64,000 bases of DNA, taken from contig CAZDIP010000002.1 in NCBI GenBank assembly GCA_964505635.1, positions 37,736 through 101,735 of the forward strand, in the 5' to 3' direction. Below the pieces are notes generated by a model. That model worked only from the letters and a program-made list of their open reading frames with translations, was not told the origin of the DNA and ran no database searches. Position numbers and translations under genes: made by a program. Positions 21,661-57,236 of this stretch are shown piece by piece (the stretch's first letter is position 1; the number at the start of each line of letters is the position of its first letter). Source of the DNA: an uncultured Candidatus Saccharibacteria bacterium (lineage in GTDB: Bacteria > Patescibacteriota > Doudnabacteria > UBA920).

Positions 21661-21859
21661 CGTATACATACTATAATATATTTTTTTAAAAAAAGCAAGT
21701 AGTTTGTATAAATTTTTATGGCTTATTTATGCCTTTTTAAAGGCTCACATGGACTGAGCCTTTAAAAAATCCAAAAAAAATAAAAGCAGCTCCCTAGAAT
21801 CCTTTGTCAGGACCTAAGGAGCCGCAGAGTGCGCTAGTCTGCCTTCTTGTTAGAAGACG

Positions 21860-35137: not shown

Positions 35138-35143
35138 ACACTA

Positions 35144-35171
35144 GCCCCCGCCTTTGCGGGGGTTTTTGTTT
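35144..35171 (+). terminator. Rho-independent terminator CCCCCGC-CTTT-GCGGGGG + TTTTTGTTT
   Basis: Immediately downstream of trpS. Confidence 0.75.
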
Positions 35172-35191: not shown

Positions 35192-35515
35192 ATGCCAAGT
35201 TGGGCAACGCAGTTTTTGGAAATTCATTTCCAGAAGCCCTGCGAAGCAGTACTTCTGGAACAACAAACACCAGATGTCTGGTGTGGATTAAATATCTGTC
35301 ACACTCGGCCTCACAGACACCATAACATTCTTATCTTGTTGGTTTATGGTGGTACATTTGACCCTTCCACAATACCTCCCTCAGTGACCATAATAAAAAA
35401 AGTAGAATTCAAGCAAAACGGTCACCTACCGAATTTTGAATGGCCTGACTGGAAACATAGTCAGCTACAAAAACCAGTCATTCTATTTGAAAGGAATTCA
35501 CATGCAAGAACTTGA
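35192..35515 (+). CDS. Hypothetical protein (His/Cys-containing, 107 aa)
   Basis: ORF preceded by AGGAGG-like GAAAGGAGG; no recognisable family. Confidence 0.3.
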   Translation: MPSWATQFLEIHFQKPCEAVLLEQQTPDVWCGLNICHTRPHRHHNILILLVYGGTFDPSTIPPSVTIIKKVEFKQNGHLPNFEWPDWKHSQLQKPVILFERNSHART

Positions 35516-35777
35516 GTTCGTGTATGAATTTCAAAAGCCAGAAGAAGCGCAGGCCGCGCTCGGCCACCTCTCGTGGCTGCAGTTTAACGGACACAACGTG
35601 TCCGGCTGCGCCGAAAACGGCTCTTCCGTCACCATCACGGTCTGGTTTCGCCGCCACGACCCAGATCAAGTAGAAGAGCTCCGCAACGAGCTCGGCGCCT
35701 TAAGCGCCACCCCCGCCCAACCGACGCAAAACGACGATCGCCCCCAAGCGACCGCCGTTTTCATTTTGTTTACTTAA
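35502..35777 (+). CDS. Hypothetical small protein, GC-rich (about 60%)
   Basis: 91 aa starting MQELEFVYEF; strong GC shift relative to neighbours; overlaps the 3' end of the upstream ORF. Confidence 0.3.
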   Translation: MQELEFVYEFQKPEEAQAALGHLSWLQFNGHNVSGCAENGSSVTITVWFRRHDPDQVEELRNELGALSATPAQPTQNDDRPQATAVFILFT

Positions 35778-37125
35778 ATTTTTCTATCTGTTCCGTGACT
35801 TCCTTGGTTTTATTTTCAAGCAAATCCTTACTGCTCGCCTCAACGTTCAGCCTAATTAACGGTTCAGTGTTGGAGGCGCGCAAATTAAATCTCCACTCCG
35901 GGTAATTAAAATCCACGCCGTCAATCTCATCTATTTTAGCATCGGCATAAAAACTTTTAATGCCCGCTAAAGTTTGTTTTAAATCTCTAACTTTAAAATT
36001 TATTTCCTCTGAAATAAAAAATTTCTCTCTAAGCGGAGCCAACACTTCCGAAAAAGCCCTGTCCGCCTGCGACAAAATATCCAAAACAGCCAAAAAAGGA
36101 ATCAGTCCGTTGTCCAAATAAAAATTTTCCTTAAAAAAATAATGCCCCGAAGTTTCGCAGCCAAATACCACATCTTCTTTTATCATCCGCTCTTTTATAA
36201 ACGAATGCCCGGCCTTGTTCATAACCGAAACACCTTTATTTTTTTCCACCAGATAATCTATAACCCTCACTACCCGTGTGTCGTGAAGTATTTTCCCGCC
36301 GGGGTATTTTTTTAAATAGTACTCGGCCAATAAAGCATTTATGTATGCCGGGGTAACAAACTCCCCTTTTTGGTCAAAACAAAAAAACCGGTCAGCATCC
36401 CCGTCCCAGGCCACGCCCAAGTCAGGCTTGTGTTCTTTTATAGCCTCTATAGTTTCTGCCCGGTTGGAAGGAAGCAAAGGATCGGAAGGACCTTTGGGAA
36501 AATTGCCGTCCAAATGGCCGTTTAAAACTTCCACAAATTCCACCGGCAAAATAGTTTTTAATTTTTCTATGGCCGGATTAATCATGCCGAAATTGGCGTT
36601 AGCCACAATCTTAAAAGGTTTAATGCGGCTAATATTAAAGCTTTTTAAGACATGATTGTAATACGCTTCGGTAATGTCCGCCTTTTCAACACTTCCCCTG
36701 TTTGGCAAATCTTCTAAAAGCTGGCCGGAAATGACCATATCCCGAATTTGGTAAATGCCGCTGTCTCCGGAAATTGGCCTGCCTTTTTCCCTGACCATTT
36801 TTAACCCGCCATATTCCTTGGGGTTGTGGCTGGCGGTAATTTGGATGCCCCCGTCAACCGGCAAAGTCGCAGCCGCAAAATACAGCTGGTCAGTGGACAC
36901 CAGGCCAATGTCTATAACATCAACACCGGTCTTAGTCAGACTGTCTATGGCTGCTGCCTTAAACTCAGCCCCGGAAAGCCTCATGTCACAACCCACCACA
37001 ACCTTTTTTGGCTTTAAAAAAGCCGCGTAAGCCCTGGCTATCTTATATACAATATCCGCATTGATTTGCGTAGGATATACCCCCCGAATGTCATAGGCCT
37101 TAAAAATACTTTGATCTATATTCAT
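35770..37125 (-). CDS. Phosphoglucomutase/phosphomannomutase (α-D-phosphohexomutase family)
   Basis: 451 aa; active-site TASHNPKEYGG, metal-binding DGDADR, four-domain layout. Confidence 0.9.
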   Translation of the reverse strand: MNIDQSIFKAYDIRGVYPTQINADIVYKIARAYAAFLKPKKVVVGCDMRLSGAEFKAAAIDSLTKTGVDVIDIGLVSTDQLYFAAATLPVDGGIQITASHNPKEYGGLKMVREKGRPISGDSGIYQIRDMVISGQLLEDLPNRGSVEKADITEAYYNHVLKSFNISRIKPFKIVANANFGMINPAIEKLKTILPVEFVEVLNGHLDGNFPKGPSDPLLPSNRAETIEAIKEHKPDLGVAWDGDADRFFCFDQKGEFVTPAYINALLAEYYLKKYPGGKILHDTRVVRVIDYLVEKNKGVSVMNKAGHSFIKERMIKEDVVFGCETSGHYFFKENFYLDNGLIPFLAVLDILSQADRAFSEVLAPLREKFFISEEINFKVRDLKQTLAGIKSFYADAKIDEIDGVDFNYPEWRFNLRASNTEPLIRLNVEASSKDLLENKTKEVTEQIEKFK

Positions 37126-37224
37126 AAACTTATTTTAACATAAAATACAACAGGCAGGCTTTGTCCTAAGGCACGCTCACGCGCCCCGAACAAAGCCTGC
37201 CCTGCAAAGATAATTCAATGAAGA

Positions 37225-37506
37225 TTACGCGTTATTGCGACTTGCGGCTTTTGACCACTCCGCGTAAGTCCCAAACACTGTCAGTTTCCCAACCTGCACC
37301 CGAATCTTCTTATGAGGCCCCACACCCTCACCCTGCGGACGAAAATGCCCATAAGATTCCACCGCGCGATGCAGCAGTCCGTTTTCACATTGAGAAATAT
37401 GAACGGGTTCTGGTTCGTGTCCCCTAGTCAACTTCTTTCGCAGTCTAGAGGGAAACACATCTCCATCCTCATCTCCAAGAGAATACATTCTCATACAATC
37501 CTCCAA
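37225..37506 (-). CDS. Hypothetical protein in GC-rich islet
   Basis: 93 aa ORF in about 50-58% GC DNA; no motif; weak call. Confidence 0.2.
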   Translation of the reverse strand: MEDCMRMYSLGDEDGDVFPSRLRKKLTRGHEPEPVHISQCENGLLHRAVESYGHFRPQGEGVGPHKKIRVQVGKLTVFGTYAEWSKAASRNNA

Positions 37507-37994
37507 CTGATTCTACACTAGATCAGCGCCCAAAGAGCGCTCAAACGTCTACTATTTTATTCCTATTCTCCCAAACCGTCAACAGTGGATAAATTGTCTT
37601 GCGCGGAAAAATAAACAGGAATATATTAAAAATGTTATGATCTACCGCACTGCTAAGATGCGCAACCTACTTTTTTGGCTACGGCGCCGCAGGGCGCCAG
37701 CAAGGAGGCTCACATGAGACACGCGAAAACCCCCTTTCGTGGGTAACTGAGGCAGTGAAAGTCTCGCCTAAATAATATATTCTACAAGGCGAGGCAAATA
37801 GCACTCTAACCCACGAAAGGGGGTGATCACAAGCAATACGGGGCAATCCCCGGGCGCACCGCTACCTTGTCGGTCGCGCCTTTTCTTTTTACCAAAATAA
37901 AAACCGCCTTTGGCGCGGATATCGGGCGGTTCCAAAGCGTTGGAACCGCCCCTCTTGCATCCTTACAGACGCTTATTTACTCCCGAGCTTCACC

Positions 37995-38768
37995 CTAGTT
38001 AGTCAGAGTAAAATTCACGTCTATTTGCGTAACCACCTCCACCGCTTCCCCGTTAAGGAGCGTGGGGCGGTAAACCCACTGCCTTACTGCGTCTATGGCA
38101 GCGGGCACAAGCAGCGCGTGGCCTGACACAAGCTTAAGCTCCGAAATGGTGCCGTCACGGCGAATTATAGCCGTAAGCCGCACTAATCCCGAAACCCTGC
38201 TTGCTTTGGCCAATGCCGGGTACAATGGTTTTGGCTGAAAAACAAGCTGCGCGGCCATTACCTCGCCTCCCCTTTTAACCCTTACGGGTTCTTCGAAAGG
38301 CTTAGGTTTTGGCTGTGCTACAACCTGCTCTTTTGGCGGGGACGGAATACCTGCAACATTCCCGCATACCGCCTCGGGACAAAAAGGAACGCTGCCGCTG
38401 CCAGGACTGGTTGCGTGCCCGTAAACCAATTCCGGTGCTCCAAGCTCCCGGTCATTAATTTCCGCCACTTGAGCGGGAATTCTTGACGGAGCCGTAAACA
38501 CCTTAGTCGGCCTAACTGCAACAACCTGCTCCTGGTTTGAGCTGTTTGGACTCCTCGCCCCGTCTTGCTTTACAGTCTCCGGTTTTTGCGCCGGCAACTG
38601 CGTCAGCTCAACAGGGAGAAAAATCCTTTCCTTCTGTCTTGCGGGCTTAACCGCGCCCTTAACGCTGCTGGCCAAAACCAACAACGCCAAAACAGCCATT
38701 ACCACTACCACAGCCATTGGAAAACTCCACCGGCTGCCTGTTTTGTACGACAAATTGTTTTCGAACAT
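37995..38768 (-). CDS. TonB C-terminal-domain protein (energy-transducer TonB-like), GC-rich
   Basis: 257 aa; N-terminal transmembrane anchor, Pro-rich linker; C-terminal KPLYPALAKASRVSGLVRLTAIIRRDGTISELKLVSGHALLVPAAIDAVRQWVYRP matches the TonB-C fold signature. Confidence 0.7.
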   Translation of the reverse strand: MFENNLSYKTGSRWSFPMAVVVVMAVLALLVLASSVKGAVKPARQKERIFLPVELTQLPAQKPETVKQDGARSPNSSNQEQVVAVRPTKVFTAPSRIPAQVAEINDRELGAPELVYGHATSPGSGSVPFCPEAVCGNVAGIPSPPKEQVVAQPKPKPFEEPVRVKRGGEVMAAQLVFQPKPLYPALAKASRVSGLVRLTAIIRRDGTISELKLVSGHALLVPAAIDAVRQWVYRPTLLNGEAVEVVTQIDVNFTLTN

Positions 38769-39042
38769 CTTCTTAACCCTCCTAACAGGTTTTAAAGATG
38801 CCCACTTCAGGCCAGCTGTTCCACCTCTATACTCCTCTAGGCGCTCAGTGCTTTAAGGATACCGTTTCTGCCGGTGAGAGGATGGCCTTAGCCCAAAGTT
38901 TGCGCAGGGGGTGTTTAGCCCCGTAGCTTTCTTTAATTTAAGAATACACCCGTTATATTTTTAGTCAAATAAATGCCAAAATAATACTTGGCTAAACTGA
39001 TTTTGTGTTTTATACTATTCACTGATCATTAAACACTAGAAC

Positions 39043-40125
39043 ATGTCCTTCAAAATCGGCATTGTCGGTCTGCCTAATGTAGGCAAAAGTACCCTCTTTA
39101 ACGCCATTACCAAAAGCAAAGTAGAAGCAGCCAATTACCCGTTTGCAACCATAGACCCAAACGTGGGCGTGGTTGCTGTGCCTGACGAAAGACTAGCTAA
39201 ATTAGCTGAGTTAGAAAAGTCGGAAAAAGTCGTGCCTACCACAATTGAATTCGTAGACATAGCAGGCTTGGTTAAAGGCGCCTCAACTGGCGAGGGTTTG
39301 GGTAATAAATTCCTTTCCCATATACGCGAAGTGGACGCTATAATGGAAGTAGTGCGGTTTTTTGAAAACAAGGACATTATTCATGTAAACGGCAACGTAG
39401 ACCCAAAAAGGGATATGGAAACCATTGGCATAGAACTTCAGCTTGCAGATTTGCAGAACGTTGATAACCGCCTTTCATCTATTTCCCGCCAAGCCAAAGC
39501 CGGCGAAAGGGACGCGGTTATAAAAAAACAGGTTTTAGAAAAATACAAAGCTGCTTTGGAAAAAGGCGAAATGGCTAATACGGTTATATTAACCGATGAA
39601 GAAAAAGAACACAGCAAAGACATTCAGCTTTTAACCACCAAACCGTTTTTATTTGTGGCCAACAGCGAATACGATATGGCAAATAAGTCATACAAGACCG
39701 ACGCGTCATATAAGTCCTATTTGCTCGACGCAATTTTAATAGATGCGCAAATAGAAAGCGAACTGGCTGAACTTAGTGATACTGATCGCGAGGAATATTT
39801 AAAAGAGCTCGGCCTGCCGGAGTCAGGCTTAGACAAAATTATAAAAACCGCATACAAAACTTTAGGCCTTATAACCTTTATAACCGCCGGGCCAAAAGAA
39901 AGCAAAGCCTGGACATGCACAAAGGGAAGCAAAGCTCCCCAGGCAGCAGGAAAAATACACACTGATTTTGAAAAAGGTTTTATACGCGCGGAAGTTATAC
40001 AATGGAATAAGCTTTTGGAAGCAAATGGCTACGGCGGAGCCAGGGCAAAAGGCTGGCTCAGGACTGAAGGCAAGGAGTATGCGGTACAAGATGGGGACGT
40101 GGTGCACTTTTTGTTTACCCCGTAG
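39043..40125 (+). CDS. ychF: Ribosome-binding ATPase YchF (Obg-family)
   Basis: 360 aa; GIVGLPNVGKSTLFNA P-loop, DIAGLVKGAS, C-terminal TGS domain. Confidence 0.95.
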   Translation: MSFKIGIVGLPNVGKSTLFNAITKSKVEAANYPFATIDPNVGVVAVPDERLAKLAELEKSEKVVPTTIEFVDIAGLVKGASTGEGLGNKFLSHIREVDAIMEVVRFFENKDIIHVNGNVDPKRDMETIGIELQLADLQNVDNRLSSISRQAKAGERDAVIKKQVLEKYKAALEKGEMANTVILTDEEKEHSKDIQLLTTKPFLFVANSEYDMANKSYKTDASYKSYLLDAILIDAQIESELAELSDTDREEYLKELGLPESGLDKIIKTAYKTLGLITFITAGPKESKAWTCTKGSKAPQAAGKIHTDFEKGFIRAEVIQWNKLLEANGYGGARAKGWLRTEGKEYAVQDGDVVHFLFTP

Positions 40126-40169
40126 ATTTATTGTACGGGGTTTAATGTATAACTGACCAAAAAACACGC

Positions 40170-40204
40170 GATCCCCCAAAGTTCATTCTGAACTTTGGGG
40201 GATC
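40170..40204. terminator. Perfect 14-bp hairpin GATCCCCCAAAGTT/AACTTTGGGGGATC shared between convergent genes
   Basis: Lies between the ychF stop (40125, +) and the 40221-40652 (-) stop; T-run on the minus strand. Confidence 0.6.
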
Positions 40205-40220
40205 TCTGCTATTGGCTAAC

Positions 40221-40652
40221 TCACTTCCTGGGAGACGTTGGCGGTGCGGCCTTCTTCGCCTCCACCTGAGTTTGCTGATGGTACTCACTGTACCAAATCA
40301 GCCCAGCGCAGGCCAATAAAAGCGTAGAAGACAGCGCGATGCTCAAAACCGAAACAGGAAGCAACCCACCGGCGTCGCCACCCACATACTTGCTTTGAGT
40401 CTGTAGACACTGAGAGACAACAAACGAGCAGCCCCCAGTAACGCAAAGCAGAATCAACGAGTGTTCCATGTCGGTGCCGTAAAGCACCAGGCTCCATACA
40501 AAGGGACCAAAACACAACACAACACCGACCGCGCCCCTTATTAAATCTTTGCCAGGATCGTTCTTCCGAAGACCGTTTTGAAAAAACAGCCAGCCCGCAA
40601 GAAGCCCGCAAAAAACAACAGCGAGCGAAAGCAAGCCAAGATTAGTTGGCAT
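40221..40652 (-). CDS. Hypothetical polytopic membrane protein, GC-rich (about 55%)
   Basis: 143 aa, four hydrophobic helices, Pro/Lys-rich C-terminal tail. Confidence 0.45.
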   Translation of the reverse strand: MPTNLGLLSLAVVFCGLLAGWLFFQNGLRKNDPGKDLIRGAVGVVLCFGPFVWSLVLYGTDMEHSLILLCVTGGCSFVVSQCLQTQSKYVGGDAGGLLPVSVLSIALSSTLLLACAGLIWYSEYHQQTQVEAKKAAPPTSPRK

Positions 40653-40895
40653 AATCTCTCCTTCTCGTTTTACTCCACCAAAAATCTAACCCCGTCACCA
40701 AACGGGGCCAAAACTACTAAGAAAGATTTTACTTTATTTCAATAAAACTGTCTATGGTTAGACAGATATTATAGCATATTTTTATAAAAAAGTCAATAGA
40801 CAATTAGCCTTCATTTTTGCTATAATTTAGTAACAAATTAATCAATATCATATTCCCTACTCCTTTTGTGAATAGGGATAGAAAGGAATCTTTCT

Positions 40896-41402
40896 ATGCC
40901 GCGATATGAGCTTATGTACCTGTTAGGCTCGCAAGTAGCCGACACAGACGTACCAGCCATTACTGCCCAAGTCTTAAAATTCGTAGAAGACTTTGGCGGT
41001 ACGGACGTAGTAGAAGAACAGTTAGGCAAAAAAAAGTTAGCCTACCCCATAAAAAAAACCCGCAACGGCCATTATGTTGTGGTGGCTTTTACCATGGATG
41101 GGCAAAAAGTTAACCAGTTAGACGCCCGCATCCGAGCCCAGGATCAGAGCATCATCCGTTATTTACTGGTCAATTTAGACGAACACTTGGCAAAAAAGGC
41201 CAAAGACGAAGCTTTGGCTGCCAAAAACCCCAGGCGCCAGCCAGAAGAAGACGCGCCCGCAAAAACCGCTGTTTTGGAAAAGGAAGAAAAGCCCGTAAAA
41301 ATAGAAAAGAAAGAAAAAGCCGCGCCTAAATTAGTGGAACTGGACGAAAAGGCTTTAGATGAAAAAATTGAAGCCGCTTTGTCCGAAGATTTAACAAAAT
41401 AG
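40896..41402 (+). CDS. rpsF: 30S ribosomal protein S6 with Lys/Glu/Ala-rich C-terminal extension
   Basis: MPRYELMYLL...YPIKKTRNGHYVVVAF core; starts the rpsF-ssb-rpsR operon. Confidence 0.9.
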   Translation: MPRYELMYLLGSQVADTDVPAITAQVLKFVEDFGGTDVVEEQLGKKKLAYPIKKTRNGHYVVVAFTMDGQKVNQLDARIRAQDQSIIRYLLVNLDEHLAKKAKDEALAAKNPRRQPEEDAPAKTAVLEKEEKPVKIEKKEKAAPKLVELDEKALDEKIEAALSEDLTK

Positions 41403-41486
41403 TGCCTAGTGAACAGTGTACAGTGACTAGGCACTGACCACTGACCACTAATCACTGTTTAAAATTTAACATTAAATTTTAAACTT

Positions 41487-41981
41487 ATGGACTTAAATAA
41501 AGTCATGATAATAGGCCGCCTAACCCGCGACCCGGAATTAAGAACCACCCCTTCGGGCGCCAATGTCTGCACTTTGGGCATAGCCACCAACTATGTTTAT
41601 ACCAACCAGCAAACCGGACAAAAAGTTGAACAGGTGGAATACCACAACGTAGTACTATGGAGAAAACTGGCCGATATTGCCCACCAGTACATGAAAAAAG
41701 GCCGCCGGGTTTATATAGAAGGTCGCTTGCAAACCCGCTCCTGGGACGGACAGGACGGCCAAAAAAAGAGCCGCACGGAAATTATTGCCGACAATATGAT
41801 CATGCTAGACAGCGGCCAGGCCGGAGGCCAAAACAGCGGCTATAACAGCCCTTACCAAAAGCCTTCAAACAACCAAGCGCCTAAAAACGAAACCGCGGTT
41901 GAATCCCCCGCCCGGCAAGCCGAAGAACTGCCTACTATTGTACAGGGCGAGGACATTAACGTGGAAGATATTCCATTTTAA
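41487..41981 (+). CDS. ssb: Single-stranded DNA-binding protein
   Basis: 164 aa; OB fold (VMIIGRLTRDPELR...NVVLWRKLADIA), Gly/Gln-rich tail ending DIPF. Confidence 0.93.
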   Translation: MDLNKVMIIGRLTRDPELRTTPSGANVCTLGIATNYVYTNQQTGQKVEQVEYHNVVLWRKLADIAHQYMKKGRRVYIEGRLQTRSWDGQDGQKKSRTEIIADNMIMLDSGQAGGQNSGYNSPYQKPSNNQAPKNETAVESPARQAEELPTIVQGEDINVEDIPF

Positions 41982-42029
41982 TTAACTGAGTTAAATAAAT
42001 TAATTTTACAAACACCTATCAACCACATT

Positions 42030-42266
42030 ATGAGACCTAATAACCGAGATACCCAACCGGCGCAAAAAAAACAATGCTATTTTTGCTCCAATAAACTAAC
42101 CACGGTAGATTACAAAGACACACAAATGCTGCGCCGCTTTATGTCACCGCATGCCAAAATTATGAACCGCGGGCGCACCGGCACCTGCCCCAAACACCAG
42201 CGCGTGGTAGCCACGGCATTAAAGCGCGCACGCCATATGGCGCTTTTGCCTTTCGTCGCGGCATAG
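42030..42266 (+). CDS. rpsR: 30S ribosomal protein S18
   Basis: 78 aa; CYFCSNKLTTVDYKDTQMLRRFMSPHAKIMNRGRTGTCPKHQR. Confidence 0.92.
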   Translation: MRPNNRDTQPAQKKQCYFCSNKLTTVDYKDTQMLRRFMSPHAKIMNRGRTGTCPKHQRVVATALKRARHMALLPFVAA

Positions 42267-42361
42267 CCTAAGACTGAAAGGCAAAATAAACCAATAACTG
42301 ATAATTTATAACTCATGACAGTTATCAGTTATTTATTATTAGTTATTAGTTAAATACTACT

Positions 42362-42922
42362 ATGGATTTAAACGATTTAAAAATTGGTACTATTATTCTC
42401 TGGGAAAACCAGCCTGTGCAGGTAATCTGGTCTAACCGCATGCGCACCGCGCAAAGAAAACCGGTGATGCAAACCAAATTGCGCAATGTAATAACCGGCA
42501 AAGTCTATGAATATTCTTTTAAGTTTGGCGAAAGCATTAAAGAAGCAGACGTTGTTCGAGAAAAAGCCGGATTTTTGTATGCCGACGAGAGCGGAACCCA
42601 TTTTATGAATCAGGAAAACTTTGAAACCGTAGATATTGCCAAAGAAGTTACCAAGGAGCAGGAAAAATTTTTGAAGGAAGGCATGGAAGTCAGTATTTTA
42701 AAATTCAACGGCCAGCCTGTATCCATAGAACTGCCAATAAAAGTTGAGCTTAAAGTAACCGAAGCTCCGCCGGATACCAAAGGCAATAGCGGAGGCAACG
42801 TAACCAAACCGGTTACTTTGGAAACCGGGCTTGTGGTAGACGCTCCCATGTTTATAAAAGAAGGCGATGTCTTACGGGTAGACACCCGCACCGGAGAATA
42901 CGTAGAACGCGCCGCTCAATAA
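42362..42922 (+). CDS. efp: Elongation factor P
   Basis: 186 aa; three-domain EF-P with KOW-like N-domain (IILWENQPVQVIWSN...KLRNVITGKVYE). Confidence 0.93.
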   Translation: MDLNDLKIGTIILWENQPVQVIWSNRMRTAQRKPVMQTKLRNVITGKVYEYSFKFGESIKEADVVREKAGFLYADESGTHFMNQENFETVDIAKEVTKEQEKFLKEGMEVSILKFNGQPVSIELPIKVELKVTEAPPDTKGNSGGNVTKPVTLETGLVVDAPMFIKEGDVLRVDTRTGEYVERAAQ

Positions 42923-42937
42923 TCTTTCTGGACAATT

Positions 42938-42974
42938 TAAAAGCCCTCCCGCCTTAAGGCGGGAGGGCTTTTAA
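42938..42974. terminator. Bidirectional rho-independent terminator AAGCCCTCCCGCC-TTAA-GGCGGGAGGGCTT
   Basis: 13-bp perfect stem between convergent efp (+) and the 782-aa repeat protein (-), with flanking A and T runs. Confidence 0.8.
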
Positions 42975-42985
42975 TATGCTTAAAC

Positions 42986-45334: not shown

Positions 45335-45394
45335 AAGTTTAAATATTTAATTGTTTAGCATTATATTATGGTCTAACTAAAAGCTTTTGTCAAC

Positions 45395-46153
45395 ATGGCT
45401 TATTTCCTTTCTTTACAGAAAATTTCAAAGATACTAAAATTAATAAATTGCAATAACTTGCATGCCTCTGCTACGGCAGAGTATCCCTCCCTTCGCGGGA
45501 GTACACCAAGGAGTGACAAGATGGAGTTTACGATCCGTTGTCTGGAAACTCGCGAGAGCGTCAAGATAGATGAGGCCGTGCTCAAACTCGTAACAGTGCT
45601 GGTAGACGAAAAAAAGGTTGATTGCGAGAACCCTCTCCGCCTGACAGCGCATTACGCAAACGGTGGGAACAAGCCTTTCATCGGGTTTGCTTGGGACTAC
45701 CCACAAACCTTCCGTTATAGACAGAAAGGCGCTTGGCCAACACGGTTTCACGCAGCGGTGCCTGTTGCAAAAGGCACAAACGCTATAGATCTGATGCTGC
45801 TTGTTTATTACAGGCTCTCTGCAATGCTCGTCATGCACGGAATCCATTTCAGCTACAGGTACGACACCTGCTGGTGGTTCCGGGTCGACACGTCTGGTTT
45901 TTCTCGCAATGTTCTACTTGCGCCGATTGAAGAACTCGAGCTCCGAGAAGAGACTCTGGCCGCCGTCAAAGAAAAATTCCTTGTTACAACTGCAAGGGAT
46001 CTAGCTATGGTAACCCAAATCGAGCTTGAAGTGGCCGGTCTCACCGAGACTGCCCTGAAAAACCTGCAATATGCGCTTGGTCAGGTGGGGCTTTGGTTGG
46101 GTATGACCCAATGGCAGCTTGATCACTTCATTCCACCCGAGCGCTTTAGCTAG
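45395..46153 (+). CDS. Hypothetical protein (moderately GC-rich); possible true start at MEFTIRC (about 45521)
   Basis: 252-aa ORF; no recognisable motif; followed by a strong terminator. Confidence 0.4.
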   Translation: MAYFLSLQKISKILKLINCNNLHASATAEYPSLRGSTPRSDKMEFTIRCLETRESVKIDEAVLKLVTVLVDEKKVDCENPLRLTAHYANGGNKPFIGFAWDYPQTFRYRQKGAWPTRFHAAVPVAKGTNAIDLMLLVYYRLSAMLVMHGIHFSYRYDTCWWFRVDTSGFSRNVLLAPIEELELREETLAAVKEKFLVTTARDLAMVTQIELEVAGLTETALKNLQYALGQVGLWLGMTQWQLDHFIPPERFS

Positions 46154-46183
46154 TAAGTAAAACAAATCCTAAACTTTTTAGGT

Positions 46184-46221
46184 CAGTCTGGAGACGAAAG
46201 TGCTCCAGACTGTTTTTTTAT
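46184..46221 (+). terminator. Rho-independent terminator CAGTCTGGAG-loop-CTCCAGACTG + TTTTTTT
   Basis: 10-bp perfect stem with a 7-T run. Confidence 0.75.
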
Positions 46222-46257
46222 ATTTGATTTTATTTTAATGCACTAAATTAGTTAGAC

Positions 46258-46761
46258 TTATTCTTTATACCTGCCAATACATTCCACTGCCTTAAATCCT
46301 TCACCAATTAAAACTTCAGTGCTAAAACTCTGCTCCCATGTTGACTGTCCAACAGCCCAAATTCCCGGCACCGAAGTTTTCTGTTCAAAATCTACTTTAA
46401 TTTTTCCGTTAGATTTTTTCTGAATCAGTTTGTCAAAATCTAAATCTTCACCGTTAGTCGCGATTAAAATGGTTTTCCCATAATAAAACTTTCCGCTCTT
46501 TGTTTCCGCGCTAAAACTGACAATATTTTTTTCTAAATTAATCACCTCGGCTTTTTCAAACTCCACGAGACGCTGTTTTATTATTTGCTGAAATTGTTCT
46601 GCTAATTTGTGCAGGTCAACAAATCCAAAGGTAGATTTTTGGATCGATGGCGTTTGGGGTAGTTCTTTAGCGATTACTAAAGTATTTAATTTTTTCTGCG
46701 CCGCGGCCACCGCTGCCCCCATCCCCGCTGCTGTGGCGCCGATTATAATTACATCGTACAT
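46258..46761 (-). CDS. Short FAD-binding oxidoreductase-like protein (TrxB-like N- and C-terminal FAD segments without the NADPH domain)
   Basis: 167 aa; YDVIIIGATAAGMGAAV (GxGxxG FAD motif) and C-terminal TSVPGIWAVGQ (compare GIFAAGD) but no second dinucleotide-binding domain or CxxC. Confidence 0.5.
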   Translation of the reverse strand: MYDVIIIGATAAGMGAAVAAAQKKLNTLVIAKELPQTPSIQKSTFGFVDLHKLAEQFQQIIKQRLVEFEKAEVINLEKNIVSFSAETKSGKFYYGKTILIATNGEDLDFDKLIQKKSNGKIKVDFEQKTSVPGIWAVGQSTWEQSFSTEVLIGEGFKAVECIGRYKE

Positions 46762-46870
46762 AAAAAATGGTATTACGAATTAAGTATATAAGACATTAAA
46801 AAATAAAAAAAGCCTCTTGACCAAAAGGTTTTTGAGTCGTATTATACCTCAATCTTAAAAGGAGGCTGAT

Positions 46871-47545
46871 ATGAAAGTCAGCAAGCGGTATTTTTGGCTG
46901 CTGGCGCTTGTGTCAGCAGTCCCCCCCGGCGCCGGCCAGACCCCGGCGCAGCTGGATGTCCGCTTTCGGGACACCCCAAAAGCGGAAAACCAGAAACAAG
47001 AGTTCGTCCGTTTTACCATGCTGCCTGGCGCATGGTTTGTGGATGCAATCCACGTGCGGAACGGAAATGAGTTTTCTGCCCGCTACGCAGCAGGCCCCAG
47101 AGTTGTGAAAACTACAACCTGGGATTTATACCTGGCAGGCAGCGTTTCGCCGGGCGCCAACAAGTCTTTATTTCTCGGGCAAGGCCTACAGGCCTACTGG
47201 GTAAAAAAATCCGGCCGGTTGCCAGTCATGAAGCTGGCAGCCCCGGTTCTGGAATTCTACCAGGACAGGGGCAAAAACCAGCAGGCAAAACTTGGTCTAA
47301 AAGAAAACGAACAGCTGTTCGTTTTTATAACACCAAGGTTTGCCGTCAGCCAGGAGACGTTCATTAACAAGCCCTTTGGGGCTAAAGTGAACGGCTACTA
47401 CGCCCTGGCGGCTAATGCCTGGCCTGACAACAAGTTAATGCTGGAAGCAGGTGCTTTTCGTTCGCTGAAAGGCGAATGGATGCTGCGCGTGCGTCTGGTG
47501 TTCAACTTTTCCCTCGGCCGCAACGCGGCCTCGCTGACCAACTAA
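46871..47545 (+). CDS. Secreted hypothetical protein, GC-rich (about 55%), possibly β-rich
   Basis: 224 aa; signal peptide MKVSKRYFWLLALVSAVPPGAG; AGGAGG-like GGAGG 8 nt upstream; alternating hydrophobic pattern toward the C-terminus. Confidence 0.45.
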   Translation: MKVSKRYFWLLALVSAVPPGAGQTPAQLDVRFRDTPKAENQKQEFVRFTMLPGAWFVDAIHVRNGNEFSARYAAGPRVVKTTTWDLYLAGSVSPGANKSLFLGQGLQAYWVKKSGRLPVMKLAAPVLEFYQDRGKNQQAKLGLKENEQLFVFITPRFAVSQETFINKPFGAKVNGYYALAANAWPDNKLMLEAGAFRSLKGEWMLRVRLVFNFSLGRNAASLTN

Positions 47546-47594
47546 AAACCGCTCTCCGCGAAAAGCTGAGGACGGTTTTTGATTTTAAACAAAA

Positions 47595-48818
47595 CTATTT
47601 CATTTTTTTTATAATCCTCTCTGCTGCCAATATGTAAGCCGCGTTTCTAAAAGTAGTGTTGTATTTTTCCTTTTTACCCAACACATCCGCGAAGGCTTGT
47701 TTAATTTGTTTTTCCAGTTTTTCCAAAACTTCTTTTTTCCCCCATTTCTCGTTATTCATATTTTGATACCATTCGTAATAAGAAACGCATACGCCGCCGC
47801 TGTTCGCCAAAATATCCGGAACAACTGTTGTGTTATTTTTTACAAAAATTTCATCTGCCTCAGGCGTGGTTGGACCGTTGGCCATTTCTAAAATCAGTCT
47901 AGCTCTAATATTTTCCGCATTCTTTTCAGTTAATACACTTTCCAAAGCCGCCGGAACCAATATATCCACCGGCAATTCAAGCAAAGATTCATTGCTAACA
48001 TCTTTGCTGCCCAAAAAACCTTTTAAAACACCGGTTGCTTTTTTATGCGCCAAAACTTTTTCAACGTCCAGGCCGCTTTCGTCATATATGCCGCCTTTAG
48101 AGTCGGACAAAGCCGCAATCTTATAGCCTTTTTCAGCAGCCATTTTTGCAAAAAAAGTCGCGACATTGCCAAACCCTTGTATTGCGATACTGCTGCCTGG
48201 TTTAATATCCAGCCTATTAGCCACTTCTTCTAAAACATAAAACCCGCCAAATCCCGTGGCCTCTTCCCTGCCCTCACTGCCGCCTTTATCCACCGGCTTG
48301 CCGGTAAAGACAGCTTCTGACTTTTCATTGCCAGTAATGTTTTTATATTCATCTACCATCCAGTTCATAATTTGACCGTTGGTATTAACATCCGGCGCCG
48401 GCACATCAAAATTAGGCCCTAAAACCGGGTACATTTTTTTTACCCAGCCGCGGGAAAGCTTTTCCAATTCGGCTTCAGACAGTTGTTTAGGATCAACAAT
48501 AATTCCGCCTTTGCCTCCGCCAAAAGGAACATTCACCACCGCGTTTTTAAACGACATCCAAAAGCTTAAAGCGCGCACTTCGTCTAAGCTGACGTCATGG
48601 TGATAGCGTATGCCGCCTTTGTAAGGCCCGCGGGCATTACTGTGCTGGCTGCGGAAGCCGATAAAAACTTTTTGTTCTCCATTGTCCATAACAACCGGAA
48701 TACTAACTTCTATGTATCTATCCGGCTGCATTAGCTGTTGGATTTTTTTCACATCAAGCTCCGCAATTTTTGCCGCAGTTTGTAATTGTCGCTGGGCGTT
48801 TTTAAAAGGATTATTCAT
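47595..48818 (-). CDS. gdhA: NAD(P)-dependent glutamate dehydrogenase
   Basis: 407 aa; Glu/Leu/Phe/Val dehydrogenase signatures KGGIRYHHDVSLDEVRALSFWMSFKNAVVNVPFGGGKGG and Rossmann GFGNVATFFA. Confidence 0.88.
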   Translation of the reverse strand: MNNPFKNAQRQLQTAAKIAELDVKKIQQLMQPDRYIEVSIPVVMDNGEQKVFIGFRSQHSNARGPYKGGIRYHHDVSLDEVRALSFWMSFKNAVVNVPFGGGKGGIIVDPKQLSEAELEKLSRGWVKKMYPVLGPNFDVPAPDVNTNGQIMNWMVDEYKNITGNEKSEAVFTGKPVDKGGSEGREEATGFGGFYVLEEVANRLDIKPGSSIAIQGFGNVATFFAKMAAEKGYKIAALSDSKGGIYDESGLDVEKVLAHKKATGVLKGFLGSKDVSNESLLELPVDILVPAALESVLTEKNAENIRARLILEMANGPTTPEADEIFVKNNTTVVPDILANSGGVCVSYYEWYQNMNNEKWGKKEVLEKLEKQIKQAFADVLGKKEKYNTTFRNAAYILAAERIIKKMK

Positions 48819-48830
48819 GCTAAAGATAGT

Positions 48831-49769
48831 TTATTTTTCCTGGTTAACCTTATTTTCCCGGGTGCTTAAAACCGACAGGCTGGTAACCGAAGCAAGCAGC
48901 AACAACGCGCCAAAAATTTGCCATGCGGTCAAGGTAATCCCTAAAAATTTCCAGTTAATCAAAGTCAAAGCCAGCGGATAGCCTAACTCCATTAAAGTGG
49001 CTATAGAAGCCTTAGTCTGCCTTAGCCCATAATAATAAATCAACAGGGCAAAAAATCCGGTCATTAAGGCAATAATTAAAGTGTTTTGCCAATAAAAAGG
49101 CGTCATTGCAAAAAACTGCATTTTTTCATAAAGCAGGACGTAAAAAAACAAAAACACCAAACCAAAAACAAAGCGCATGCCGGTCACAAATTTAAAATCC
49201 AAGTCAGAAAGCAAAGCGCGGCCGACCACCGTACCCCCGGCCCACAGCAAAGCAGCCAAAATAGCCAGTAAAGGACCCAGTAAGCTTATATTGGTGGCTG
49301 AAGCGAAAAGCGCGGAAGGCACGGTAATACCAAAAGACACCAAATAAGCACCGAAAAGCGCCGCGATGGCAAGTAACCAAAACTTTGCATAAATTTTTTC
49401 TTTTAAAAAAAACGCGGCTAAAAAAATCGCAAAAAGCGGCTGAAACTTTTGAAGTAGCGCGGCAACGGTAAAATTGTAATTCATTACCGTAGCGCCCTTA
49501 ACAAACAAAATTGCGGCTAAAGCAGAGGCAAACGCGCCGACGTAAATTAAGCCCAGCCATTTCTGTAAACTTAATTTTTTAAAATCCGCCCGCGCTTTTA
49601 TAAGCCCGGGCAAAGCCGCCAGGCTGTTTAACAAATGTTCCAAAAACGCAATAAAGCCCGTGCCTAAACCGGCTATTAGCAGAGGTTTTCTAAAAGGCGC
49701 GTCTGCCGCCCAAAGCAGAGAAGCTAAAAAAATTACCAAAGATCCAAATTTTTTTTTCATATTACTCAA
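48831..49769 (-). CDS. DMT-superfamily (EamA-like) transporter
   Basis: 312 aa, about 10 transmembrane helices, duplicated EamA-type halves. Confidence 0.75.
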   Translation of the reverse strand: MSNMKKKFGSLVIFLASLLWAADAPFRKPLLIAGLGTGFIAFLEHLLNSLAALPGLIKARADFKKLSLQKWLGLIYVGAFASALAAILFVKGATVMNYNFTVAALLQKFQPLFAIFLAAFFLKEKIYAKFWLLAIAALFGAYLVSFGITVPSALFASATNISLLGPLLAILAALLWAGGTVVGRALLSDLDFKFVTGMRFVFGLVFLFFYVLLYEKMQFFAMTPFYWQNTLIIALMTGFFALLIYYYGLRQTKASIATLMELGYPLALTLINWKFLGITLTAWQIFGALLLLASVTSLSVLSTRENKVNQEK

Positions 49770-49980
49770 GCTCAGAAATTAAGTCTTCAGTTCTTTGCAT
49801 GGCTGTCCTTAAATGTTTGCGCATATCTGCCCGCTGGTAACTTTCCTCTTCTTCGTTGTCCGGGTAGCGCCCATAATTATATTCAATAATATCTCTGGTT
49901 ATGCCGTCCCGAAGGCGCTGGACGTCCCTTATTAAGTTGTCTAGCTGCGTTTTTGCAGCCTGTTGGTCAAAATTGGGCAT
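49762..49980 (-). CDS. Hypothetical small acidic protein
   Basis: 72-aa ORF overlapping neighbours by 8-14 nt (operon-like); no motif. Confidence 0.3.
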   Translation of the reverse strand: MPNFDQQAAKTQLDNLIRDVQRLRDGITRDIIEYNYGRYPDNEEEESYQRADMRKHLRTAMQRTEDLISELE

Positions 49981-50368
49981 TTTTTACCTTTTTAATGTCT
50001 AAGTTAATTTGTTTTTTTAATAATGCCTCGCTTTTATATTTTTTAAACGGCCTTAGGTAAGTAATTAAGTACGTAATTAAATACTTGCCATACAAATTAC
50101 CCCTAAATCCAAGCAAGTGCGCTTCTATTTTGGGCAAGCCGGTTTTGTCTATTGGCCCTATTACAATTGCCGCTTTATATTTTTTTGGGGGTTGGGTCTT
50201 GGATTTTGGATATTGTTTCGGATTTATAAATACATTACCCGCCCAAATACCCATTTTTGGTTTTTTCCTGAGCCTGGTCCAATGCCGCCTATCCAAATTA
50301 GCCGTAGGAAAACCCAAAATCCTGCCCAAGCCCTGACCTTTAATAACCGTGCCGCTGATTTTTTTCAT
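49967..50368 (-). CDS. Riboflavin kinase (monofunctional RibF C-domain-like)
   Basis: 133 aa; GTVIKGQGLGRILGFPTANL matches the flavokinase GxGxGxxxGFPTAN motif; internal YLITYLITYL from a short DNA duplication. Confidence 0.7.
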   Translation of the reverse strand: MKKISGTVIKGQGLGRILGFPTANLDRRHWTRLRKKPKMGIWAGNVFINPKQYPKSKTQPPKKYKAAIVIGPIDKTGLPKIEAHLLGFRGNLYGKYLITYLITYLRPFKKYKSEALLKKQINLDIKKVKNAQF

Positions 50369-50369
50369 A

Positions 50370-50783
50370 TTAACGCTTTACGATCCTGTATGGCAAACCA
50401 AAAAAATCTTTGCCTAAAAACGATTCAATATCTTTCCGTGCTTTGTTGCTGAAATACTCCACCACCACCTCAGCCTTGTTGGTGTATTTTGCGTCTGTCC
50501 AGCCCGGGCAAATGACTTTTTCTAAATTTACAGAAAAACCGCCCAAACCCTCTATTTTTTCAGTTGCGCCTTTATGTTCAAAAAAAATTTTTTCTGCCTG
50601 CACATAAAAAGGCAGGTCGTAGCAGGACAAAAAATGTTCCCGGCTGCCAAAGAACGCGCTGGCATACCAAATTTTAAAAGCCCTTTGGCCAGCCAAAGTG
50701 TATCCGGCAAAAAAAGCCAGCCCGGCAACCATAACGGCGGCAATTACCTTTAATATTCGTAGCCAGGAAAATCCGTTATTCAT
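50370..50783 (-). CDS. Membrane-anchored hypothetical protein
   Basis: 137 aa with N-terminal transmembrane helix; start overlaps the trxB stop. Confidence 0.4.
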   Translation of the reverse strand: MNNGFSWLRILKVIAAVMVAGLAFFAGYTLAGQRAFKIWYASAFFGSREHFLSCYDLPFYVQAEKIFFEHKGATEKIEGLGGFSVNLEKVICPGWTDAKYTNKAEVVVEYFSNKARKDIESFLGKDFFGLPYRIVKR

Positions 50784-51720
50784 GCTCGGTCAAATATTTT
50801 TCCACATCAAGCGCAGCCATGCAGCCCATGCCGGCCGCGGTAATAGCCTGCCTATAGCGCGGGTCATTAACATCGCCTGCAACAAACACCCCTTCAATGT
50901 TCGTCTGAGTATTATTTTTTACTTTAATGTAACCTTTCTGATCCAATTCAATACCCGCTTCCCTAAAAATTTTTGTATTGGGAGTGTGCCCAATGGCCAC
51001 AAAAAACCCGCCAGCCGAAATTACTTCTTCCTGACCCGACTGGTTATGTTTGATTTTGACGCCTTCTACTTTTGTTTCACCCACGATTTCCGCAATTGTC
51101 GCGTCGGTCACAAACTTGATTTTTGGATTTTCCTGAGCTCTTTTAAGCATGATTTTAGAAGCTTTGAATTCATTGCGCCTATGAACGATAGTTACTTTGC
51201 TTGCGAATTTAGTCAAAAAATTCGCCTCCTCCATGGCGCTATCCCCGCCGCCGGCCACCACAATTTCCTGGTTTTTAAAGAAAAAACCATCACAGGTTGC
51301 GCAGGCGGAAACCCCCTTGCCCCGAAGTCTTTGTTCGCTCTCCAAATTCAGCCAATTGGCTGTCGCTCCGGTTGCAATAATAACGGTCTTGGCTAAATAT
51401 TCCTTTTTAGCGGTCTTTATTCTAAACGGCTTTTGGGAAAAATCCACTGCTGTTGAATTTTCTAAAACCACTTCGGTTCCAAAACGTTCTACCTGCTTTT
51501 GCATGTTGTCCATTAACTCGGGCCCCATTATACCGTGAGGAAAACCGGGAAAATTTTCCACTTCAGTGGTTTGCATCAGCTGGCCACCCGGCTCAAGACC
51601 GGCAATAAGCAAGGGTTTTAATTCCGCCCGGGACGCATATAAAGCCGCGGTTAACCCGGCCGGTCCGCTGCCAATAATAACAAGATTATAAATATTTTTT
51701 TCCATTTCCATAGTATTCAA
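50776..51720 (-). CDS. trxB: Thioredoxin-disulfide reductase
   Basis: 314 aa; NLVIIGSGPAG (FAD), CATCDG redox-active disulfide, VVAGGGDSAMEEA (NADPH), GVFVAGDV. Confidence 0.93.
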   Translation of the reverse strand: MNTMEMEKNIYNLVIIGSGPAGLTAALYASRAELKPLLIAGLEPGGQLMQTTEVENFPGFPHGIMGPELMDNMQKQVERFGTEVVLENSTAVDFSQKPFRIKTAKKEYLAKTVIIATGATANWLNLESEQRLRGKGVSACATCDGFFFKNQEIVVAGGGDSAMEEANFLTKFASKVTIVHRRNEFKASKIMLKRAQENPKIKFVTDATIAEIVGETKVEGVKIKHNQSGQEEVISAGGFFVAIGHTPNTKIFREAGIELDQKGYIKVKNNTQTNIEGVFVAGDVNDPRYRQAITAAGMGCMAALDVEKYLTEHE

Positions 51721-51762
51721 AAATTAAAAACCATATTAACTATTCTACTTTATAAGCCCTAT

Positions 51763-51791
51763 CTTGACAAATTTGCCAAAAAAACCTATAC
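51763..51791 (+). promoter_or_regulatory. Sigma-70-like promoter TTGACA-17nt-TATACT for the small GC-rich membrane protein gene
   Basis: -35 at 51763-51768, -10 at 51786-51791; followed by AAGGAGGGGG Shine-Dalgarno at about 51842-51851. Confidence 0.5.
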
Positions 51792-51863
51792 TGGGCGGTC
51801 CTCCCGCAGCTTTATTGCCTCGGTTTGAGGAAAGCATTAAAAAGGAGGGGGAAAGGAACCTTA

Positions 51864-52132
51864 TGGGTATTCCTTTGTTCCTGATGCTAGGGGTTGCGGC
51901 CGTAGCGCTGGCAAGCGCGCAAAAGAGCACCAACCGGCTAAGAAGTAAGCTGGTAAAAAAAGCTCCGGCCAAACGCCTGCATCTGACCCTGACCGCTCTT
52001 ATTTTAACCGCGCAAGTTTCCGAACTGGTTAAAATGATTGAGCACCTGTCAGTGGTCACCGTGGTTTCAGCGCTGTTTGTGTTAGCCTTAGCGCTGGCAA
52101 CCACGTCGGGAACAGAGGGAGAACTGCATTGA
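51864..52132 (+). CDS. Small two-transmembrane-helix membrane protein, GC-rich (about 55%)
   Basis: 89 aa from ATG 51864 (MGIPLFLMLGVAAVALASA...), 7 nt after a strong Shine-Dalgarno; preferred over the antisense ORF 51745-52104 because of promoter and Shine-Dalgarno. Confidence 0.45.
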
Positions 52133-52198
52133 CCCTTTTGGTTCCCAAAAGTTTAAGCGCCCGCAAAGTTTTTCAACTTTACGGGCTCTTTTCAAACT

Positions 52199-56736: not shown

Positions 56737-56769
56737 CCCACCCTACGAGTGGTCACCCGAAGGGTGATA

Positions 56770-57063
56770 ATGTCTACTAATAAACATATGCATTACGTTT
56801 ACGTATTATGCAGTAGGAATAATAAGTGGATCTATATTGGCTGTACAGATGATTTAAAAAATAGATTTAAACAACACGAGAAAGGAGAAGTATTTTCAAC
56901 TAAAAGCCATAGACCCTTAAAACTAGTTTACTATGAAAGTTATGCCAATAAGGCCGATGCAAGAAGCAGAGAATATAAATTAAAACATCACGGTCAAACA
57001 AAAGAGCTTTTAGTTAAGCAAATAGAAAAATCTATAAATATGGCGCTATCGTCTAATGGTTAG
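56770..57063 (+). CDS. GIY-YIG nuclease-family small protein (start taken at MSTNKHM; the ORF track starts at 56749)
   Basis: HYVYVLCSRNNKWIYIGCTDDLKNRFKQHEKGE...KLVYYESY...REYKLKHHG (GIY...YIG, R, E); the last 11 codons are encoded by the second direct repeat and overlap tRNA-Glu. Confidence 0.7.
   Translation: MSTNKHMHYVYVLCSRNNKWIYIGCTDDLKNRFKQHEKGEVFSTKSHRPLKLVYYESYANKADARSREYKLKHHGQTKELLVKQIEKSINMALSSNG
57030..57055 (+). repeat. 26-bp direct repeat (copy 2) overlapping the GIY-YIG 3' end and the tRNA-Glu 5' end
   Basis: Identical to 56711-56736. Confidence 0.85.
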
Positions 57064-57116
57064 GACAAGTGGTTTTCATCCACTAAATCGGGGTTCGATT
57101 CCCCGTAGCGCTACCA
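57042..57116 (+). tRNA. tRNA-Glu (anticodon TTC), CCA encoded
   Basis: Acceptor GGCGCTA/TAGCGCT; D-arm TCGTCTAATGGTTAGGAC; anticodon stem AGTGG/CCACT with loop TTTTCAT; T-arm CGGGG-TTCGATT-CCCCG; A + CCA. Confidence 0.85.
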
Positions 57117-57236
57117 ATTAAATCCAAGATTACAAACCGCCCGTGGATCGGGCGGTTTTAAAGTTTTCAAAACCGAGGCCAAAGGCAACGGAAAACTTTT
57201 TTGTTAAATAAAAGCAGGTTGCGCTATAATAACGCC

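Follow-up and report, generated by a model that had tools for sequence, protein, structure and literature searches.

The 64,000-nt stretch of contig CAZDIP010000002.1 (assembly GCA_964505635.1, Doudnabacteria) analysed here, below called the window, carries five short GC-rich segments, ISL1 to ISL5, each coding for a small protein and surrounded by low-GC housekeeping genes. The question raised by this locus is whether these islets are foreign genes, repeatedly acquired from a host or a partner organism, as the original prediction suggested, or native genes of unusual composition. We conclude, with moderate confidence, that the five islets belong to the lineage's own flexible gene set, that is, small, fast-evolving, taxonomically restricted genes with a heritable GC-rich composition. 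The evidence does not support their acquisition from a host or a partner: no homologue has been traced to a donor lineage, and the orthologues within the lineage are equally GC-rich.

GC content of the islets

All five open reading frames (ORFs) are present in the window, and four of the exact proteins, as well as ISL3 in the form of a 210-aa product, are on public record as called genes. The islet junctions recur in independent Logan assemblies, ruling out an assembly chimera. The compositional observation itself is confirmed: GC-rich coding sequences (51–57%, Table 1) lie amid low-GC genes in a window of 43.3% GC, and the GC content of their 100-bp flanks is 0.28–0.46; therefore the GC shift coincides with the coding sequence. 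Among windows of equal length taken from the rest of the 64 kb (mean 0.42), the fractions that match or exceed the islets are 0.0007, 0.0022, 0.0031, 0.0000, and 0.0165 for ISL1 to ISL5, respectively, which places the islets in the top 0–1.7%, and their GC z-scores relative to 52 other genes of the window (mean 0.416, standard deviation 0.049) are 2.0–3.4. The GC excess was further partitioned, using the window's own codon usage, into an amino-acid and a synonymous part, and both contribute (z 1.1–2.1 for amino-acid composition, z 2.0–4.2 for synonymous choice). The predicted pattern of discrete GC-rich segments between low-GC housekeeping genes is borne out.

Variable slots in a conserved gene order

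A scan with EF-P yielded about 40 loci (designated below by L numbers) with 73–91% identical EF-P, nearly all labelled as Candidatus Doudnabacteria or Patescibacteria metagenome-assembled genomes (MAGs), and all window proteins were compared by tblastn with the EF-P neighbourhoods of about 35 Doudnabacteria species. The GC content of the Doudnabacteria relatives ranges from 38 to 62%. The islets neighbour housekeeping genes, namely TrpRS, phosphoglucomutase (PGM), YchF, S6, SSB, S18, and EF-P, as well as glutamate dehydrogenase (GDH), the EamA transporter, riboflavin kinase, thioredoxin reductase (TrxR), and the HtrA-like protease. The gene order TrpRS–PGM–YchF–S6–SSB–S18–EFP–Big2 protein–half TrxR-like–GDH–EamA–riboflavin kinase–TrxR–HtrA is common to these species and strongly kept, with gene content varying in certain slots only.

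The most widespread islet is ISL5, for which an iterative search finds homologues in 16 other species, located in the TrxR–HtrA slot wherever both flanking genes could be identified. Regression of ISL5 GC content on that of the locus gives a slope of 0.99, an offset of +0.06, and r = 0.86, so ISL5 behaves as a resident with a GC offset of its own. Homologues of ISL1 are found only in L001 (84% identity) and L009/L088 (66%), always between TrpRS and PGM, with GC content 0.54–0.55 vs. 0.39–0.45 in the respective backgrounds; homologues of ISL2 are found in L024 (53%) and L010, both in the YchF–S6 slot, with GC content 0.50 and 0.485 vs. backgrounds of 0.42 and 0.39. The orthologues of ISL1, ISL2, and ISL4 have a GC content at third codon positions (GC3) of 0.50–0.66 in hosts of 39–45% GC. 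As orthologues in other low-GC Doudnabacteria keep the excess, it cannot be taken for the mark of a recent foreign donor that has yet to ameliorate. Lineage-restricted homologues of the same GC content, the observation that the original prediction named as speaking against foreign origin, are found for ISL1, ISL2, and ISL5, and the closest homologue of ISL4 is of the same kind.

For pairwise substitution rates we used the related strain L001, whose nucleotide identity to the window is 94–96%. The synonymous rate (dS) of ISL1 is 0.28, the same as that of its neighbours; therefore ISL1 has co-diverged with them and predates the split between the window strain and L001. The ratio of nonsynonymous to synonymous rates (dN/dS) is 0.37 for ISL1 and 0.29 for the gene of a TonB_C-domain protein in the neighbouring slot B, compared to 0.04–0.10 in the neighbouring genes; hence, both genes are under purifying selection, weaker than that on their neighbours.

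The original prediction proposed to check whether related strains lack individual islets; this is so for ISL3 and ISL4 and not for ISL5, and ISL1 and ISL2 are intermediate. The slot of ISL3 is only 101–195 bp long and contains no ORF of at least 50 aa in L009, L010, L013, and L024, and that of ISL4 is similarly empty (115–177 bp) in six relatives. Slot turnover is confirmed for ISL3 and ISL4, which are either species-specific gains or genes lost elsewhere.

Direct evidence of exchange comes from orf107, which precedes ISL1 in an operon that is also found in L001, L009, and L088. The window gene and its L001 counterpart (L001 4625–4942) have identical ends, with the central approximately 90 codons wholly replaced, resulting in 45% amino-acid identity and dS of 2.2, compared to dS of 0.07–0.28 in the neighbouring genes; the islands WCGL and FEWPDWK are retained, and further family members are present in L036, L004, and L015. 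The gene looks like a case of allele replacement or a diversifying locus. Allele replacement would mean that these slots recombine with divergent relatives. A diversity-generating retroelement as the source of this hypervariation was ruled out by inspection, as the divergence includes indels and is not confined to particular bases.

The islets, all of them real protein-coding genes, differ in age: ISL5 and the TonB_C-domain protein are old residents, ISL1 and ISL2 are shared, in the same slot, by a few related species, and ISL3 and ISL4 are species-specific occupants of slots empty in relatives. ISL2 to ISL5 are self-contained cassettes and ISL1 is an operon gene, all placed in variable slots of the highly syntenic Doudnabacteria chromosome. 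Turnover most likely proceeds by recombination in the conserved housekeeping genes on either side of a slot, a step that we infer; the orf107 replacement is seen directly.

Search for a foreign source

In the searches of 5.8 and 1.8 billion proteins, no homologue of an islet was traced outside Doudnabacteria, the exception being a distant match of ISL4 in a contig of 62% GC without taxonomic assignment. The word-indexed search of the 5.8 billion proteins yielded two homologues of ISL1, both within the lineage, and none of ISL3 except ISL3 itself. ISL4 also matched only itself there, and three relatives of it appeared only in a full HMMER pass over 1.84 billion representative proteins. The closest of them (49% identity) is found in GCA_964512925.1, the same Doudnabacteria MAG as locus L023, at an unrelated genomic site (L085). 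It has GC content 0.574 and GC3 0.66 on a background of 0.40, with neighbouring genes at 0.33–0.45, and, like ISL4, is a single gene with AT-rich flanks, its own native-type promoter-like site, an AAGGAGG sequence, and a terminator. The distant relative in the 62% GC contig (L087) is 31% identical, and its GC content matches that background.

Neither the five islet proteins nor the ISL5 family have matches in Pfam, NCBIfam, or PHROGs. Relatives of ISL1 to ISL4 are absent from 2.9 million viral contigs, and metagenome scans for the ISL4 family and for one PEP-CTERM protein of the window returned no relatives. Pfam and tRNA scans reveal no integrase or tRNA next to any islet; the only flanking repeats detected around ISL3 and ISL4 are AT-rich chance matches, and tRNA and Rfam scans of the region yield no RNA genes. 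The regulatory surroundings of the islets, i.e., their flanks, promoters, and Shine-Dalgarno sequences, have an AT-rich, native style, with AGGAG-type Shine-Dalgarno sequences visible at the islets.

Codon usage and maintenance of high GC content

The GC excess is a heritable property of each coding sequence, resulting in part from amino-acid composition and in part from a broad preference for codons ending in C or G. Heritable offsets are not restricted to islets: among core genes, the GC content of SSB is shifted by +0.045 and that of riboflavin kinase by –0.066 across species. Synonymous sites across these species should be saturated, given that dS is already 0.1–0.3 at 94–96% nucleotide identity.

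When the five islets are pooled, their codon shift correlates strongly with the one seen in the neighbouring PEP-CTERM genes (r = 0.72) and shows no correlation with the shift of the highly expressed DnaK, GrpE, S6, SSB, S18, and EF-P (r = 0.08). Codons ending in C and A are favoured in highly expressed genes, and those ending in C and G in the islets. The lack of correlation and the general gain of C- and G-ending codons therefore argue against translational selection and for a cause of the GC-pressure type. The alternative offered in the original prediction, a gene family held to a different codon usage, comes closer for the conserved genes, whose orthologues retain their raised GC content; however, the islets do not form one family, and their codon shift does not follow that of highly expressed genes.

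In the loci studied, the GC content of rare ORFs is twice as variable as that of core genes (standard deviation 0.067–0.076 vs. 0.035), deviating in both directions, and the GC content of rare and accessory ORFs tracks that of the host with a slope of approximately 1 (0.87–1.02), which argues against a single accessory pool of fixed composition, at about 50% GC, that all species would share. A hydrophobic segment goes with slightly higher GC content among accessory ORFs of moderate conservation (+0.018 vs. –0.011 for those lacking one, p = 0.004). Candidate causes of the kept GC content would be recurrent exchange with relatives of higher GC content within the lineage or GC-biased gene conversion in slots prone to recombination.

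Alternative explanations

The sharp GC outliers, the shift at synonymous sites, and the lack of ISL3 and ISL4 in the same slots of relatives might be expected if foreign GC-rich envelope genes were recurrently acquired from a host or partner as single-gene cassettes; the PEP-CTERM-like codon shift and the distant ISL4 homologue in the 62% GC contig point the same way, as does the presence of PEP-CTERM and TonB_C, both typical features of diderms, in a genome that has a sortase. We still consider such acquisition unlikely: the protein searches lead to no other lineage, ISL5, ISL1, and ISL2 are syntenic and equally GC-rich in other Doudnabacteria, where the closest homologue of ISL4 is also found, the islets have native-style surroundings and signals and no mobility signatures, and ISL1 and ISL3 are not envelope proteins. 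Still less probable is a related scenario, in which ISL4, the TonB_C protein, and the PEP-CTERM proteins would form a diderm-style envelope toolkit of a sortase-bearing bacterium of the Candidate Phyla Radiation (CPR), taken from or aimed at Gram-negative hosts; such proteins may work at or insert into the outer membrane of the host and would be kept GC-rich by re-import from GC-richer genomes. Exchange within the lineage has a better, if minor, chance of being the full explanation: cassettes would come from GC-richer Doudnabacteria (up to 62%) by recombination in flanking genes, being always fairly recent and never fully ameliorated. The relatives do span the necessary GC range, the orf107 replacement between strains of 94–96% identity demonstrates recombination of this sort, homologues of ISL4 occupy different sites in two species and occur in one 62% GC contig, and the codon shift resembles general GC pressure rather than translational selection. 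On the other hand, a shared pool would yield a flatter slope than that observed for rare and accessory ORFs, the GC content of ISL5 closely tracks that of its hosts, and the dS of ISL1 indicates co-divergence with its neighbours between the two strains.

Two further readings dispense with transfer. Native genes could be held to GC-rich codons by translational selection for high expression, as might be suggested by the near-consensus promoter-like sites, the AGGAGG Shine-Dalgarno sequences, and a small positive codon excess of translation genes across species; this is very improbable and was rejected on the codon-shift correlation, the islet deviation being uncorrelated with highly expressed genes and the favoured codon endings being different. 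The islets could also be meaningless fluctuations within the normal compositional variance of the genome. Indeed, the top native genes, S18 (0.519), SSB (0.501), and UvrA (0.492), with GC3 of 0.56–0.58, are level with ISL2, ISL3, and ISL5, which are at the upper native edge, 200-bp peaks of 0.52–0.54 are present within housekeeping genes, and core families also have heritable GC offsets. However, this reading, the least credible of those considered, is largely refuted, as all five islets are in the extreme tail of same-length windows with boundaries that match coding sequences, every gene with GC z above 2.2 in the window is non-housekeeping, and ISL1 and ISL4 exceed all native genes.

Several observations weigh against the reading that we prefer, a flexible gene set of the lineage itself with heritable composition. 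The codon shift of ISL1 and ISL4 (observed minus expected GC content +0.09 and +0.08, z 3.7–4.2) tops that of any native gene, and the likeness of the islet codon shift to that of the PEP-CTERM genes, rather than of highly expressed genes, is the pattern expected from a GC-richer genome. The location of ISL4 and its closest homologue at different sites, with a third homologue in a 62% GC contig, indicates that a GC-rich reservoir exists outside the low-GC species, and ISL3 has no homologue that would bear on its origin. The comparison covers about 20 kb per relative.

Comparison with known systems

The finding is otherwise best described as ordinary accessory-gene turnover. Similar to orphan accessory genes in variable slots, the islets are small, fast-evolving (dN/dS 0.3–0.4), belong to no known family, are lineage- or species-specific, and are located between conserved genes with presence varying among relatives. 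They differ from such genes in being GC-richer than the host, with the excess kept in orthologues. Bacterial ORFans and recently acquired genes are reportedly usually AT-richer than their host, and the islets are mildly unusual in that these flexible genes deviate in the opposite direction.

ISL2 to ISL5 and the L085 homologue of ISL4 also resemble phage morons, being single genes of deviant GC content with their own promoter-like site and terminator, but the islets are placed between chromosomal housekeeping genes, not in a prophage, and have no PHROG matches, and ISL1 to ISL4 have no viral relatives. Atypical composition, sharp boundaries, and the patchy distribution of ISL3 and ISL4 are shared with genomic islands and islets; however, integrases, tRNAs, direct repeats (tested around ISL3 and ISL4), and donor-lineage homologues are lacking here, the regulatory flanks are native in style, and the composition is kept in syntenic orthologues.

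For CPR genomes, these results are a caution that GC deviation of a single gene is insufficient to call it foreign or host-derived; here, the deviation persists in the orthologues of several low-GC genomes. The GC-rich direction of the shift makes this lineage a possible test case for distinguishing GC-biased gene conversion from repeated within-lineage exchange in very small genomes. Moreover, ISL5, ISL2, ISL1 with orf107, and the all-beta family of ISL4 constitute new uncharacterised Doudnabacteria-specific families of small proteins, which may act at the cell surface of this uncultured episymbiont lineage.

Structure of individual islets

The coordinates and signals of the islets and associated features are given in Table 1. 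The original prediction described the islets as single-gene inserts, most of them flanked by strong hairpin terminators, each with its own promoter or terminator, and almost all coding for envelope proteins. ISL2 to ISL5 are indeed single genes with signals of their own, and terminators, hairpins with a U-run behind them, are strong for ISL2, ISL3, and ISL5 and weaker for ISL4; ISL1, the second gene of an operon with a partner of 41% GC, has neither property. Envelope proteins are predicted for ISL2, ISL4, and ISL5, and ISL1 and ISL3 have neither a signal peptide nor a transmembrane segment, so that 'almost all' overstates the share of envelope proteins.

Table 1. Islets and associated features (positions are those of the window unless a related locus is named; energies in kcal/mol).
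Feature	Slot	Position	Strand	Description
TrpRS terminator	A	35143–35164		orf107 Shine-Dalgarno sequence directly after
orf107	A	35192..35515	+	107 aa; GC 0.41; 5' of ISL1; strong Shine-Dalgarno sequence
ISL1	A (TrpRS–PGM)	35502..35777	+	91 aa; GC 0.572, GC3 0.674; second gene of operon, after orf107
TonB_C-domain protein	B	37995..38768	–	257 aa; N-terminal transmembrane anchor; GC 0.537
ISL2	C (YchF–S6)	40221..40652	–	143 aa; four transmembrane helices; GC 0.523
ISL2 promoter-like site	C	40796–40768	–	TTGACT-17-TATAAT with TG; near-consensus extended –10
ISL2 promoter-like site and 5' leader	C	40685..40796	–	leader with two hairpins, the second (40712–40685) followed by a U-run
ISL2 terminator	C	40170..40204	–	16-bp stem, then T-run; –30.5, z –7.6
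ISL3	D	45521..46153	+	210-aa ORFan; GC 0.512; no transmembrane segment or signal peptide
ISL3 promoter-like site	D	45412–45440		the gene itself has AAGGAG 5' of its ATG
ISL3 terminator	D	~46183–46212		–22.3, z –4.4
ISL4	E	46871..47545	+	224 aa; signal peptide; predicted all-beta; GC 0.548, GC3 0.64
ISL4 promoter-like site	E	46817–46845		the gene itself has an AAGGAGG Shine-Dalgarno sequence
ISL4 terminator	E	47546–47580		weaker; –13.6, z –2.6
ISL5	F (TrxR–HtrA)	51863..52132	+	89 aa; two transmembrane helices; GC 0.526
ISL5 promoter-like site	F	51764–51792		
ISL5 terminator	F	~52155–52190		–21.5, z –4.9
YchF–S6 slot secreted family	C	L004 7375–7740		
YchF–S6 slot secreted family	C	L035 2748–3107		
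YchF–S6 slot secreted family	C	L015 7759–8133		
YchF–S6 slot secreted family	C	L025 4744–5115		
YchF–S6 slot secreted family	C	L014 7028–7435		

At their 3' ends, ISL1 and the convergent PGM gene overlap. Rather than being an insert that stands alone, ISL1 is coupled with the hypervariable orf107, and its product is a small soluble protein. In the TrpRS–PGM slot of other species (L006, L021, L027, L020, L040, L015) several small proteins with –AA or –AAA ends are encoded, e.g., ...MVAAA, ...QAMAA, ...QAVAA, ...FSAAA, and ...KVKAAA; at least four of them are mutually unrelated, and those of L006, L021, and L040 form one family. These tails resemble ssrA-like C-terminal degrons.

For ISL2, the four-helix topology given in the original prediction for the protein at 40220–40660 is retained. 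The second hairpin of its leader is terminator-like, located between the promoter-like site and the Shine-Dalgarno sequence, and has no match in Rfam; an attenuator and a small RNA are both conceivable. In other species the YchF–S6 slot is occupied by another family, secreted proteins of approximately 120 aa, all GC-richer than their hosts, and the L014 member matches the TonB_C protein of the window (32% identity). Across the lineage, this slot accommodates small envelope proteins.

The start of ISL3 is most likely at 45521 and not at 45395, yielding a protein of 210 rather than the predicted 252 aa, because the NCBI product, the GC shift, and the Shine-Dalgarno sequence all agree. Its C-terminal part of about 65 aa weakly resembles the C-terminal domain of the RNA polymerase alpha subunit: seven of the eight top matches in PDB are such domains, aligned in the same register (E 0.28–0.57), with no Pfam match to this domain. 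The AlphaFold2 (AF2) model is of low confidence (mean predicted local distance difference test score, pLDDT, 40), too poor for fold assignment.

The signal-like N-terminus of ISL4 is seen directly in the protein, and the AF2 model, built from four sequences, is all-beta, with approximately 13 strands, but of a confidence (pLDDT 45.7) that is likewise insufficient to assign a fold. Top Foldseek matches of the model are mostly transmembrane barrels, all non-significant (E at least 0.005, template modelling score about 0.3), and the C-termini of the family (...SLTN, ...AFGR, ...AIGR, and ...AFGH) are without the aromatic end residue of classical outer-membrane beta-barrel proteins. ISL4 is, by this model, probably an exported all-beta protein, the likeness to barrels being only a lead.

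The two transmembrane helices and the promoter-like site predicted for the 51763–52140 segment are both found in ISL5, with the coding start placed at 51863. The family is characterized by the motifs TAQxSELxKxxEH and SGTExELH. An antisense ORF at 51745–52104 was ruled out as the true gene, as the plus-strand frame alone is conserved across species.

The TonB_C protein and the envelope-sorting context

None of the five islets belongs to the TonB family. The protein in slot B is the TonB islet mentioned in the original prediction and lies inside the range given there. It matches PF03544 with a score of 56.9 bits (cutoff 24.6), has one transmembrane segment, and matches PDB structures of TonB2 and of the TonB C-terminal domain (E 2.5e-5). 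Like TonB proteins, it consists of an N-terminal anchor, a Pro/Ala-rich linker, and the TonB_C domain, but its bearer is a CPR bacterium whose surface system is of the sortase type, and the Pfam scan of window proteins revealed neither ExbB/ExbD nor a TonB-dependent receptor. Syntenic homologues are found in six other Doudnabacteria species, their GC excess being explained chiefly by amino-acid composition. The approximately 870-bp segment between PGM and this gene (37126–37994) contains no convincing gene, has 47–55% GC, and is in parts unalignable with L001; the window strain and L001 each have here a same-strand ORF of about 90 aa, and the two are barely alike.

At 11574–12161 and 20963–23686, the window also combines a sortase, accompanied by surface proteins of the LTD and DUF11 types (9530–16582), and three PEP-CTERM proteins of 55–60% GC. 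Sorting signals typical of monoderms and of diderms thus occur together, which is unusual; no exosortase was found among the window proteins scanned.

Compositional outliers of this genome run both ways, with GC-poor genes (27–34% GC, z –1.5 to –3.0) at 3984–4250, 56749–58127, and 61812–62366, including one for a zeta-toxin/AAA-like kinase. Tandem paralogues at 17690–19126 and 19339–20181 share approximately 270 N-terminal amino acids, and the former, with an additional C-terminal VWA domain, has 52.5% GC, compared to 43.3% in the latter.

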